A stretch of DNA of 64,000 nucleotides from an uncultured Gemmatimonadota bacterium (lineage in GTDB: Bacteria > Blakebacterota > Blakebacteria > Blakebacterales > Blakebacteraceae). Numbering within the stretch: position 1 is the first letter of the stretch; every line of letters starts with the position of its first letter. The notes beneath the pieces were generated by a model, which did not search any database, was not told the origin of the DNA, and worked only from the letters and a program-made list of their open reading frames with translations. The stretch covers positions 62,001-126,000 of the forward strand of contig CAZNUA010000001.1 in the NCBI GenBank assembly GCA_964576115.1, read 5' to 3'. The translations under genes and the position numbers were made by a program. Positions 13,086-18,568 of this stretch are shown here, piece after piece.

Positions 13086-14273
13086 CTACCTCCCGCCCTG
13101 TGTGCTGGCGACCCGGACACATTCCTGGGGCGGCACCTCTCCGGTGAGAATCCCGCGCAGCATCTCCACCCCGCCGCCGCGTACCAGACGGCCCTCGGGA
13201 TCGACCAGGGCTTCGAAGTACCCCAGCGTACCGAAGGCTTCCCAGGTGGCGTTGGCGCCGTCGAAGAGGAAGGGAAAGGGCAGGCGGCGGCCCTGCCAGT
13301 ACCGCTCGGCAACGCCTCCGTTGGAGTAGAAGACGCTGTCCACGTCGGCCAGGTTCGCGACGACAGGATGCCGGGCATGCATGAGCAGGACCGTGAACTC
13401 ATCCCGTCGGTCGGCGAAGGTCTCGTGAAGCTCGAGGATCGCAGGCACCCGGCTGCGCACGCACTCTTTTCAGGTGTATGCGAAAAGGTAGAAGAGGACC
13501 CACTTACCCCGCCACGTCTCCCAGGTAAAACCGGGTTCGACCCCCCGGGCGTCGGTATAGGCGAGCGGCGGCGGCTCTGTGCCGTAGTACCGGGCGATGT
13601 TGGTAACCCCCAGGTCGAGCCGGCCCAGTGCCAGTCGCTCCCCGGCCCGGACCGTAAACGAGCCGTCCCGACGGCGGTATTCGATGCCGGGGGCATAGAG
13701 GTTGTAGAAGTAATCCCCCGGCGGCAGCAGGAAGCGGAAATCGGCCCTCTCGCCCGGCTCGGCGTGCACCAGACGGGCGGGCAGACCGCCGGGTATGGGA
13801 AGCATGACCGACACATAGCTGTCGGTCGGTTCTTCCTCGAAGAACGCGCAATAGACCGTGCCGGTCACCTCGGCCAGGGGCGCGAGATCGAGGCGCACCT
13901 CACCGGCCCCGGCCGAAGTCGCGATCAGGGTCACCGCTCCGCGGGTCCGGGTCGAATCGACGGCCATGACAGCTACCGCCCGCCCGGTGAAAGTCAGCCC
14001 GTCGAACCGCCCGCCGGCAACGGTACGGACCGGCTCCTCGGCCCGCAGGCCCTCCGGTTCCATGACCCAGGTCAGGGCGACCTCGGCGCCCGCCACCGGC
14101 TCGCCTCGTTCGTCGACCACCACCCCCTCGATCGGGACCTGCTGCTGTCCGGACACCCCTGTCGACCGGTTACCGAACGGATCCGCTGACACAACCAGAC
14201 CCGCGAGAACCACCAGGCTCAGACCAACAGGGCGGATGGGGAACCGACGCCGGGATAGACGTCGTCCGGGCAT
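13086..14273 (-). CDS. Putative selenoprotein: carboxypeptidase-regulatory-like domain plus C-terminal TlpA/thioredoxin-fold domain with UxxC (Sec at TGA 13470-13472)
   Basis: Track ORFs 13470..14780 and 13086..13460 share a frame and are separated only by TGA, in RGKWVLFYLFAYT-U-KEC. ATG 14273 overlaps the upstream stop (TGATG). 395 aa with read-through. Confidence 0.8.
13440..13457 (-). promoter_or_regulatory. Bacterial SECIS-like hairpin
   Basis: CGCAG-CCGGGUGC-CUGCG stem-loop starting 12 nt 3' of the in-frame UGA. Confidence 0.55.
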
Positions 14274-15046
14274 CAGACCAGACTCCCTCCGCGCTTTTTC
14301 CGCAGGTTCTCGAGAAAACCCTTGCCGAGGAAGCTCTCCTCGCCGATCGAGCAGAGCCGTTCGAACATCGGGACCGTGACCGTGAAGGCCAGCAGGTCGG
14401 GGGGCACACAGTGACGCATGGCCATATCGGTCGAGCCCAGGGCCGCCAGCGGCCGGTCGAGATCCTCCAGGGAGACCACGAGTTCCATGCATCCCGAACC
14501 GAAGGGAGCGATGAAGGGGGGCGGCGAGCCCCACCGGTGATGGTAATAGACCCCGTAAGTGAGCACGCTCAACTGGTCGGGATTGATCCAGAAGGTCACT
14601 GTCTTCAGGTACCGGTATTGCTCGGATTTCAGAGGCCCGATCAGGATCTGGTCGTGTTCCATCTCGTAGACCGAACCGCGGTCGATCCACTCGGCCATCA
14701 TCTCGCGGGTGGCCTTGAGGCCCTCGTCGCGCCAGAGGAAGTCGATGAAGTCGTCGCGCGAACGCGTCTGTGACCCGCACAGCGCCCGCCCCGCCCCACC
14801 ACAGCCGTAGTTCTCGCGGGTCAGGATCAGGGTCTGGCCCTCCATCCAGCTGGTGAAGAAATCGAACACGCAGGGCCCGCGGCCGGCCCCCGGTCTGGGC
14901 CCTGTGAGCGGTTCGAAGGGGGCCGGATCGGGGGCGTCGTAGAAACCGATCAGGGGCCGGGTGTAGTCGAGCCTGTCGAGCAGATAGGCGGGATCGGGAC
15001 TGGTTCGCGAGCGGTCGCCCGTCTCGGTGGGTCGAGGGTCGGCCAT
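14273..15046 (-). CDS. DUF169 domain protein
   Basis: YGCGGA, INPDQLSVL, APFGSGC and ALGSTDMAMR motifs; RBS GGAGGA before ATG 15046. Confidence 0.8.
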   Translation of the reverse strand: MADPRPTETGDRSRTSPDPAYLLDRLDYTRPLIGFYDAPDPAPFEPLTGPRPGAGRGPCVFDFFTSWMEGQTLILTRENYGCGGAGRALCGSQTRSRDDFIDFLWRDEGLKATREMMAEWIDRGSVYEMEHDQILIGPLKSEQYRYLKTVTFWINPDQLSVLTYGVYYHHRWGSPPPFIAPFGSGCMELVVSLEDLDRPLAALGSTDMAMRHCVPPDLLAFTVTVPMFERLCSIGEESFLGKGFLENLRKKRGGSLV

Positions 15047-15225
15047 CGCATTGTCCTCCGGGATCGGCATGATGTGGGAGAGCAACCTGAGCTGCTTATC
15101 GGATCGGGGCTATCATACCCTCCCGGGACGGTGAGCCGCCAGTCAGCACAAGATCGACCGGTTGAATACGTCAAGGAGAGGAAGAAAGGGAATATTGGTG
15201 GCGGCAATAATGGCAACGCATTCTC

Positions 15226-15315: not shown

Positions 15316-16287
15316 CTATCGGGAGCAAATGCGCCCGAGCACCTGCGAGAGAACTTCCTCGACCGGATCGGAGGTCCACATCACGAAGAAGTGGATCGCC
15401 GGCACGCCCCGGGCCATCAGTGCCTCGACCTGGGCCGCCGCCCACTCGATCCCGATCTGCTGCACCTCGGCCTGTGAGGACGCCCTCTCGAGACGGTTCG
15501 AGAGTTCGACGGGAATGGTGGTATTGAACCGCCCCGGCAGGGTCTCGAGCTGGCGCCGGTCGTGGATGACCTTGAGCCCGGGCACGATCGGCACCGTAAT
15601 GCCCGCTGAACGGCAGGCTGCCTCGAACCGGAAGAAGGCTTCGGTATCGAAACACATCTGGGTCACGATGTAATCGGCCCCGGCCTCGACCTTCTCAAGC
15701 AGATGACAGATATCGGTCTCGAGGTTGGGCGCCTCGGGGTGACGTTCGGGATAGCCCGCCACACCGATGCAGAAATCGGTCGGGGTGGGATAGAGAACAT
15801 CCTCGACATAACGGCCGCGGTTCATGTCGCGGATCTGCCGGACCAGATCGACGGCGTGACGCGGACGGCCGTCGGCCGCCGTACCGTTCGTCCGACGCGG
15901 TTCCCCCCGCACGGCCAGGATGTTCCTGATCCCGAAGTAGTCCAGAGCGAAGAGGAAATCCTCGGTCTCGGTCGGGGTGAAACCGCCGGCGACGACATGC
16001 GGCACGGCGTCGATGCCGTAGCGGTCCTGGATCAACAGGGCGATCCCTTCGGTGCCGGGCCGCTTGCGTACGATCCGGCGCTGCAGCCCTTCCGGGGTCT
16101 CCTCGTACAGCACCTCAGCGGCGTGGCTGGTGACGTCGATGAAGGGCGGGTTCCAGGCCGCCAGCCGTTCGATGAGGGCGGTGAGTTCGGTGAAACTCCC
16201 CCCCCGCTTCGGCTGGACGATCTCGAAGCTGATCAGGGTCCGCCGGTCCGCAGCCGCCGAAGCCAGGTGCTCACCGACCGTCTTCAT
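15316..16287 (-). CDS. metF: 5,10-methylenetetrahydrofolate reductase
   Basis: SFEI, FIDVTSH, RKRPGT, VPHV, LAVRGE, IGVAGYPERHPEAP and ADYIVTQ motifs. Confidence 0.93.
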   Translation of the reverse strand: MKTVGEHLASAAADRRTLISFEIVQPKRGGSFTELTALIERLAAWNPPFIDVTSHAAEVLYEETPEGLQRRIVRKRPGTEGIALLIQDRYGIDAVPHVVAGGFTPTETEDFLFALDYFGIRNILAVRGEPRRTNGTAADGRPRHAVDLVRQIRDMNRGRYVEDVLYPTPTDFCIGVAGYPERHPEAPNLETDICHLLEKVEAGADYIVTQMCFDTEAFFRFEAACRSAGITVPIVPGLKVIHDRRQLETLPGRFNTTIPVELSNRLERASSQAEVQQIGIEWAAAQVEALMARGVPAIHFFVMWTSDPVEEVLSQVLGRICSR

Positions 16288-17129
16288 CGGTACAGCTCCA
16301 GCAGCAGGGAGAGTCGTTCGAAGCCCTCGGCGTCAAGGATCGCCCGCAGAGCCGTCAGGACGGGATCGTCCTCGGGCAGGGTCCGGTACGCCCGGGCGGG
16401 ATCGCCGATGATGGTGTCCAGTCCGCGGTCCGCGGCCAGGCTCAGGAAGGCGTTCTGCAGGGGCAGGCGCACCGCGGAGGGCAGGTGGTGAGTCAGGTTC
16501 GAGATCCCGACCAGGCGGTGGGTGCCGGCCAGGACCGGGTTGCCGCCGATTTCTTCGAGAACATCGAGGACGACGTTGAGTCGACCTTCGGCATCGCCCG
16601 CCACCGGCGGCAGGCCGGGATCGAAGTAGAGTTCTGCGGGTTCGAAGCCGTTCTCCCGGGCCTGTTCGAACAGAACCGACGCGGTCTGCAGCATCTGTGC
16701 GGTCGTCTCGTTGAGACGCACCCGGCCGCTCTCCGAGCGTTCCGACAGGAGCAGGACCGCGCCGAAGACCGCTTCGCGGCGCCGGGGCAGGATCGCCGGT
16801 GCCCGGGCCGAGGTCACGGAATTGAGCAGGGGGGGCGGGCCGGTGCCGTTCCCGGTCAGCAGTTCGAGGCCGAGCAGAAGTCTGGCACTGTCGTCGGAAT
16901 CGACACTCAGCGGCACCTCGACCGCTCCCCGGACGGCGCCGATCGCGTCGATCAGCACGTCGTCGGGCAGGGAGCCGACGTTGATATCCACGGCCCGGGC
17001 GCCGGCCCGGACCTGTTCGGCGGCCAGGCGGGCCACCTCGTTCCACTGCCCCCTTTCGAGCAGTTCTCCAATCCCCGGTACCGAAGCGTTGATCCGCTCC
17101 CCGATGATCGTCAGGTCTTCAACACGCAT
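16284..17129 (-). CDS. Stand-alone pterin-binding methyltransferase domain (MetH folate domain / AcsE-like)
   Basis: IIGERINAS, GARAVDIN, PLSVDS, LLNSV, YFDP and VGISN motifs; RBS GGGGAG before ATG 17129; 4-nt overlap with metF. Confidence 0.85.
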   Translation of the reverse strand: MRVEDLTIIGERINASVPGIGELLERGQWNEVARLAAEQVRAGARAVDINVGSLPDDVLIDAIGAVRGAVEVPLSVDSDDSARLLLGLELLTGNGTGPPPLLNSVTSARAPAILPRRREAVFGAVLLLSERSESGRVRLNETTAQMLQTASVLFEQARENGFEPAELYFDPGLPPVAGDAEGRLNVVLDVLEEIGGNPVLAGTHRLVGISNLTHHLPSAVRLPLQNAFLSLAADRGLDTIIGDPARAYRTLPEDDPVLTALRAILDAEGFERLSLLLELYR

Positions 17130-17192
17130 GGTGGTGACATCTCCCCGTTCTGGCGGGCCCGGAGCCCGGGCATCCTCTGTTCGGTACAACGG

Positions 17193-17223
17193 AAAAGCCC
17201 CGCGACGGGGATCGCAGGGCTTT
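17193..17223 (-). terminator. Intrinsic terminator / attenuator hairpin (segments 3:4)
   Basis: AAAGCCCUGCGAU-CCCC-GUCGCGGGGCUUUU: 13-bp stem with two G-U pairs, ending in UUUU, located between the promoter and the first gene. Confidence 0.75.
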
Positions 17224-17246
17224 CGAGGACAGCGCCGGGCGGCGCC

Positions 17247-17318
17247 TCAGCCCGCGAACCCCTCCCGGGGCCGGGGCATGGCCATACAGTGATGCTTTCG
17301 CCGGGGCGCACGCGACAT
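17247..17318 (-). CDS. Putative 23-aa leader peptide MSRAPRRKHHCMAMPRPREGFAG
   Basis: SD GAAAGGA 6 nt before the ATG; Cys-Met-Ala-Met codons directly precede a GC hairpin; stop lies 23 nt before the terminator. Confidence 0.65.
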   Translation of the reverse strand: MSRAPRRKHHCMAMPRPREGFAG

Positions 17319-17349
17319 GATCGATCCTTTCCGGGTACGATGAACCAGA

Positions 17350-17378
17350 ATCTGACTCTCCGTCGGGCAGCTTGTCAA
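17350..17378 (-). promoter_or_regulatory. sigma70-type promoter for the leader/methyltransferase/metF transcript
   Basis: Perfect TTGACA, 17-nt spacer, weak -10 (TCAGAT/CAGATT). Confidence 0.55.
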
Positions 17379-17521
17379 TCACCGTCTGGTGACGACTCCC
17401 GAGCGGAGACGATCGATAGGAACCGGTTTGAAACCGGAGAGCGTAAACAGAGCCCGGGAGAAAACGTTAATTATTAGGAATACTTACTGTTAATGAAGGC
17501 GCGAAGACGGGGACGGATCCG

Positions 17522-18568
<1,047 letters not shown>

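Follow-up and report, generated by a model that had tools for sequence, protein, structure and literature searches.

Methionine is, to our knowledge, usually missing from accounts of ribosome-mediated attenuation, whose classical leader-peptide transcription attenuators are trpL, hisL, thrL, leuL, and pheL of Escherichia coli. Here, we asked whether a short ORF with two internal Met codons, lying upstream of a methyltransferase-metF operon in the window (the whole stretch of 64,000 nucleotides under analysis), belongs to a switch of this kind. The initial annotation had proposed from the letters of one genome that a Met-codon leader ORF is coupled to a terminator and an antiterminator before methionine-pathway genes, and this much is borne out, with ORF, codons, structures, and target class shared by four genomes. 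A translation-coupled, Met-codon attenuator is in our judgment quite probable. That it senses methionine before the methyltransferase-metF operon and allows read-through by default is a reading that we favor with less assurance. Since a conserved two-Met mini-gene overlaps a switchable terminator before methionine genes, the ribosome likely reports methionine shortage at this site.

The Leader Locus

The Shine-Dalgarno (SD) sequence, the 23-codon ORF, both hairpin segments, and the U-tailed terminator are all present as first described, on the minus strand, where the remaining leader features given here also lie. The SD GAAAGGA (17325..17331), which has SD-like counterparts before the start in all four copies, leads an ORF (17247..17318) encoding MSRAPRRKHHCMAMPRPREGFAG, with the control codons Met12-Ala13-Met14 at 17277..17285 (Met12 at 17285, Met14 at 17279). 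Segment 1 (17267..17277), the 5′ side of the 1:2 hairpin, carries GGCCCC at 17272-17267, and segment 2 (17249..17266), the 5′ arm of the antiterminator, consists of a tetraloop and a G-rich arm (17262-17249) ending at the stop codon. An inner spacer hairpin that closes the antiterminator (17225..17248) is followed by the intrinsic terminator of segments 3 and 4 with its U tract (17193..17223; 13 bp, −21.0 kcal/mol), the tail of which has just four U, then CC. The promoter that had been claimed is upheld in part: the −35 box TTGACA lies at 17373..17378, and TTGAC boxes are also found 5′ of the three homologous leaders, but the candidate −10 box CAGATT (17349..17354, 18-nt spacer) is weak, with three matches out of six, and was not called in a promoter scan of the region.

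The fold of this region alone is near chance (z −1.91; 6/200 shuffles equally good), and two terminator-like sites occur in it against 0.7 ± 1.1 expected. Genome-wide, the source genome has 399 terminator-like sites, 46 of them upstream of an SD-led long ORF; an SD-led short ORF accompanies two of these 46, one being antisense to a real gene, and solely the leader locus has an internal Met. With the single-locus signal barely above chance, it is the comparison across genomes that supports the leader.

On one side of the leader, a second short ORF (17173-17111, minus strand) with a small 5′ GC hairpin starts just past the terminator and, in another frame, runs over the start of the methyltransferase gene; its ATG directly follows GAGG, without SD spacing, and it was set aside. 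Divergent from the leader is an msrBA fusion (methionine sulfoxide reductase; 17522-18568, plus strand; PRK05550 above cut-off), which is not next to the leader in relatives.

Homologous Leaders in Related Genomes

Ten genomes of the phylum were sampled, the source genome (G000) plus nine others, and a DNA search retrieved the leader from three of these nine, G001 (E 6e-8), G002 (E 0.004), and G008 (E 6e-4), each time with an SD-led ORF, Met-x-Met, hairpins, and terminator. The exact core pattern occurs once each in four of the ten genomes, next to one match with three mismatches in G007 and one control match, and a sequence-only model returned the four copies at E < 1e-21, the next best match standing at 3.8e-4. 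The five weak matches of this model that were inspected lie within genes and were rejected as leaders.

The four peptides, MSRAPRRKHHCMAMPRPREGFAG, MRRASAERLFCLMAMPRPQEGIGG, MLIIVAKRTTLFMAMPRPPEGCRG, and MPGTPGTSYMSMPRPPEGS, are encoded by ORFs of 23, 24, 24, and 19 codons, with SD and frame kept throughout; by chance, an in-frame SD-led ATG is expected at 1.1% per site. Ahead of the first Met there are 11, 12, 12, and 9 codons, a 5′ part that has diverged in sequence and by whole codons. Both AUG of the M-x-M motif are unchanged in all four copies while the codon between them differs, the residues P-R-P-x-E-G are kept in all four, and the stop codon holds the same position in three copies as TGA, TAG, and TAA. 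In G002, two synonymous changes preserve Ala and Arg, one at the cost of a 1:2 pair. Across 107 alignment columns about 50 nucleotides are invariant. Such retention of frame, SD, and stop position despite divergence suggests that the leader behaves like a translated ORF, and the ORF and Met codons that the original reading required in relatives are kept by every homologue. The four copies, all from one phylum, are not four independent trials, since the genomes are kin. The neighboring His-His-Cys codons, once offered as an added or replacement signal, fared differently: His-His occurs in one copy of four and Cys before the Met pair in two, within the genus only, so they are not a conserved signal and His/Cys sensing was dropped.

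In a generic scan, 245 loci (1.03 Mb) were examined for an SD-led ORF combining a Met cluster with a terminator, and just the four leaders came up. A relaxed peptide pattern applied to 401 genomes matched 29, and the 29 loci inspected gave no SD-led ORF with a terminator beyond the known leaders; four further matches came without a locus, and these genomes are a thin sample. Contigs from sequencing runs yielded no leader variant, only two partial matches of 36-38 nt with unrelated flanks.

Target Operons

The conserved control codons lie upstream of methionine-pathway genes in all four genomes, in three cases the HcyBio operon and in one the pterin methyltransferase-metF pair. In the source genome, the first gene is a stand-alone pterin-binding methyltransferase of 281 aa (16284..17129, minus strand; PF00809, with PRK07535 below cut-off), the stop of which is overlapped by the start of metF, a methylenetetrahydrofolate reductase of 323 aa (15316..16287, minus strand; PF02219, E 6e-62). 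No other pterin-binding methyltransferase was found in this genome, where the remaining MetH domains occupy three adjacent genes on another contig (C48; L041:4677-7000): the reactivation (PF02965), B12-binding (PF02607/PF02310), and homocysteine methyltransferase (PF02574) domains. Judged from these domain assignments, MetH is likely split, with the pterin-binding enzyme as the piece that binds folate. Its assignment to methionine synthesis, as an otherwise orphan methyltransferase, is supported by the leader, which precedes different genes of one pathway. AdoHcyase is also present.

An MTTB-family methyltransferase and a second corrinoid protein are encoded elsewhere in this genome, beside transporter-like genes (C77; L042:555-2683). 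The MTTB route would need the same single enzyme to pass methyl to folate; thus the pterin methyltransferase may also serve the MTTB-corrinoid pair, and the operon need not be purely biosynthetic. A DUF169 gene (14273-15085, minus strand) follows metF after 230 nt and may be co-transcribed with it, as neither a terminator nor a promoter was called between the two. Among distant pterin methyltransferases of Planctomycetota, Verrucomicrobiota, and others (L047-L058, L062-L084), the neighbors, judged from ORF starts, are on one side a gene that is either activator-like or metF-like, the latter with an N terminus rich in Cys, and on the other an amidohydrolase-like gene.

The leader had been presented as a feature of the methyltransferase-metF operon, a view that orthologous operons contradict. 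In the nearest of them, that of G004 (58% and 76% identity), a TTGACA lies about 70 nt before the start and there is no leader, and more distant methyltransferase-metF pairs have intergenic spaces of 60-80 nt or overlapping genes. Orthologue loci from two alignment scans (16 and 80 loci; 36 inspected upstream, all included in the generic scan) held no leader either, and a single-protein scan of genome contigs for methyltransferase orthologues found nothing. Alone, these leaderless operons would count against the finding.

The conserved partner is instead the homocysteine operon. In G001, G002, and G008 the leader sits 5′ of UPF0280-HcyBio homocysteine genes (UPF0280 identified by PRK04334 models, just under cut-off), and PF01837 was found in three of the ten genomes, precisely those with the leader in this place. 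We take UPF0280 to be COG2122 and HcyBio to be DUF39. Homocysteine synthesis in Desulfovibrio vulgaris depends on DUF39 and COG2122 proteins (PMC5764234). In G002 the operon extends to Asd and a two-piece aspartokinase. The latter appears at the operon end as two ORFs 17 nt apart (L169:5472-6772), an N-terminal kinase part and a kinase end with ACT domains, either a split gene or an assembly error. Neither HcyBio nor Asd was found in the source genome (93.66% complete). Where G001 has leader and HcyBio operon between rplM and a GMC oxidoreductase, the corresponding interval of the source genome (C46:19511-20140) measures 630 nt on a contig without N and contains neither. At 31 HcyBio loci of other phyla, a thin sample made up of 30 from 61 matching genomes plus one more, no such leader was seen up to 330 nt from the first gene that matched.

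One leader thus stands before two different methionine-pathway operons, orthologous methyltransferase-metF operons are leaderless, and the source genome lacks a detectable HcyBio; from this we infer that the leader likely changed operons in the source lineage, with relocation as the simplest reading. Ancestrally, the same comparison suggests, it would have been part of the COG2122-HcyBio homocysteine operon.

Predicted Folding and Ribosome Position

The 1:2 hairpin is predicted in all four copies (−19.9 in the source genome, then −19.7, −16.2, and −15.2 kcal/mol), its core CCCC-NGGA-GGGG is invariant, and in the predictions no other structure forms earlier. The terminator aligns over 10 pairs with 97.5% of cells paired. 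The antiterminator is predicted as one long hairpin in which segments 1 and 2 pair with segments 3 and 4, closed by the inner hairpin, itself predicted in all four copies from divergent sequences. Within it, GGCCCC of segment 1 pairs with the terminator 3′ arm (six pairs, 100% of cells paired, five never varying) and the terminator 5′ arm and loop are bound by the G-rich arm. Segment 2 therefore does pair with segment 3, as had been described, but the pairing is longer, adding GGGG with the terminator loop and GGCCCC with the 3′ arm. In the alignment, 93.5% of antiterminator cells are paired versus 43-72% when the arms are slid. Covariation, which had been named as a check, is seen in part: two terminator pairs changed on both sides, a score equaled by 27/500 shuffles, whereas the antiterminator does not rise above its shuffle control (330/500, n = 4 sequences). 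When duplexes were compared across genomes, the native 2:3 pairing was the best in its row for two of four, with G000 a near tie and G001 not best.

At equilibrium, the long antiterminator is more stable than 1:2 plus 3:4 in all four copies, by 3.4, 8.9, 12.8, and 7.1 kcal/mol, and without a ribosome the probability of the terminator is 0.10, 0.21, 0.00, and 0.36. Once the terminator loop is transcribed, 2:3 is the best fold in three of four; findpath barriers are 2-7 kcal/mol, as rough values. Of the trp/his/thr-like layout first proposed, the 1:2, 2:3, and 3:4 segments are thus predicted throughout, but the untranslated default favors the antiterminator, and the strict trp-type state, with 1:2 plus 3:4, is not the favored one at equilibrium in any of the four.

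A ribosome occupies 6-9 nt past its A site, and it was modeled in silico by masking 6-9 nt beyond the A site, in four footprints. At the first Met, the terminator has a probability of 0.01 or less in all four copies under all four footprints. At the second Met, it remains at 0.00-0.03 with 6 nt masked, and reaches 0.95, 0.68, 0.00, and 0.93 in the full transcript with 9 nt masked; the same four values are obtained one codon further on with 6 nt masked, and with the ribosome at the stop codon the probability is 1.00. The switch point is hence the second Met or one codon later in three of four, and four to five codons past the second Met in G002. In transcripts ending before the 3′ arm, a ribosome at the second Met leaves the 5′ arm sequestered in all four (0.97-1.00), the cut G001 transcript refolding into a different structure. 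The dependence of terminator probability on ribosome position indicates that a stall on Met holds the ribosome upstream of the antiterminator and that onward movement unzips it. The initial annotation held that stalling at Met12/Met14 must mask segment 1; this does not hold in the predictions, where the antiterminator is favored without any ribosome in all four copies and GGCCCC of segment 1 belongs to it. On these folding models, read-through is the predicted default in all four copies, with the terminator freed only by a ribosome that passes the Met codons.

Proposed Mechanism and Alternatives

In the mechanism that we propose, segments 1 and 2 would pair with 3 and 4 as the long hairpin when no ribosome is present, and transcription would continue. 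A ribosome waiting at a Met codon would let this antiterminator persist, again with read-through, while a ribosome past the second Met would strip GGCCCC and the G-rich arm, such that the terminator folds and transcription stops. By analogy with the trp model, the 1:2 hairpin may be a pause hairpin letting the ribosome catch up. Default read-through would suit methionine, because shortage presumably blocks both initiation, through fMet-tRNA, and the internal Met codons, with the switch ON in either case. A lineage without the homocysteine operon would have the leader on its remaining methionine-forming step, namely methyl-THF supply and transfer to the split MetH. Against this mechanism stand the small set of four related sequences, the antiterminator covariation no higher than in shuffles, the footprint sensitivity of the second Met, the late switch point in G002, the presence of just two Met codons, and, in the source genome, the weak −10 box and short U tract.

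The same elements could follow trp-type logic, in which 1:2 forms first and protects the terminator, 2:3 becomes possible when a stall at Met14 covers segment 1, and absence of translation leads to termination. The trp model established for E. coli would agree with this, and such a route could be favored kinetically, as the 1:2 hairpin, with its invariant core, is conserved in all four copies and forms first. Yet 1:2 plus 3:4 is the less stable arrangement in every copy, 2:3 is the best fold in three of four as soon as the terminator loop is out, and with a ribosome at the first Met, which leaves most of segment 1 unmasked, the antiterminator is still predicted; in addition, failure of initiation under methionine starvation would presumably terminate transcription, which is the wrong sign. 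We therefore regard trp-type logic as unlikely, though the most credible of the alternatives.

Three other accounts appear much less probable. Plant CGS1 is a SAM-responsive arrest peptide, and MxMPRPxEG could likewise be a ligand-dependent arrest peptide, for instance responsive to SAM, whose arrest over segment 2 promotes termination at high end product. The retention of P-R-P-x-E-G in all four copies speaks for it, as do the synonymous changes of G002, which retain Ala and Arg, one losing a 1:2 pair; but the N-terminal residues that would fill the exit tunnel are not conserved, and the conserved codons hardly vary at the nucleotide level, which base pairing explains, so that we hold arrest to be improbable. 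An undescribed metabolite riboswitch or protein-binding RNA with an incidental ORF, marginally less probable again, would fit the many invariant nucleotides and a place before methionine genes where SAM or SAH might be sensed. However, the pre-Met sequence varies, and so does the stop codon, without loss of frame, SD, or stop position; simple helices account for the invariant bases; and Rfam matches none of the copies. A Rfam search of 16000-18500 at E up to 10 gave just a chance match inside metF, and six related loci had no match at gathering score; SAM-I was not found in the source genome nor in five relatives (among up to 150 scored candidates per genome), and T-boxes were not found in five genomes. 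A likeness of the leader ends to SAM-III, seen by eye, was discarded, RF01767 having no match at the locus. The structure, for which a known riboswitch had been raised as a competing explanation, accordingly has no SAM/SAH riboswitch or T-box match. The least probable account, to which we give very little weight, is a leader functional in relatives and vestigial in the source genome, where it arrived with a borrowed promoter and lost its regulation. The weak −10 box, the four-U tail, and orthologous operons that manage without a leader are compatible with decay, but despite diverged flanks and 5′ codons nothing of the SD, the frame, the two Met codons, the stop position, or the two structures has been lost, and the operon newly served once more belongs to the methionine pathway.

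Returning to the default read-through attenuator, we tentatively suggest a wider reading, for which the balance tips slightly toward doubt: a portable attenuator with an inverted default, reading through unless a ribosome, having initiated with fMet-tRNA, gets past two Met codons, then re-wired, where de novo homocysteine synthesis was absent, from that pathway to folate-dependent remethylation, and possibly reporting one-carbon status via formylation. If true, the inverted default offers a way around the block that methionine starvation imposes on initiation as well.

Comparison with Known Systems

The mechanism is likely textbook attenuation. In the literature searched, no methionine leader-peptide attenuator was found, and the comparative surveys (Vitreschak 2004; Lopatovskaya 2010) could hold predictions. 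SAM-II is the subject of PMC1273637. Like SAM-I (RF00162), other SAM/SAH riboswitches, and Met T-boxes (RF00230), the leader addresses methionine genes with the same predicted output, a stop when methionine is plentiful; unlike them, its predicted signal is charged tRNA read by the ribosome, and neither the locus nor its homologues matched Rfam. With respect to the genes served, the methionine synthase that Phaeobacter inhibens makes in three parts has separate PF02574, PF00809, and B12-binding genes (PMC5764234), and the source genome is split alike. It differs in that metF partners the pterin piece, away from the contig of the remaining pieces, and in that a PF02965 reactivation gene accompanies the other two.

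With the classical attenuators and the Corynebacterium ilvB-II uORF motif (PMC10272879), the leader shares a short ORF led by an SD and containing codons for the end product of the pathway. Further points in common are a stop codon placed within the antiterminator arm, a predicted antiterminator that excludes the U-tailed terminator, and biosynthetic genes downstream. It departs from them in that the control amino acid is methionine, with just two control codons, and in that the predicted ribosome-free default is read-through via the 1+2:3+4 hairpin rather than 1:2 plus 3:4; nor does any leader family in Rfam match it in sequence. The family, in its present scope of four genomes from one small phylum, puts the same cis-regulator in front of differing genes of a single pathway among sister genomes, and offers a compact test case of 130 nt, for which a start-codon mutant is predicted to be ON whereas trp-type logic predicts OFF.
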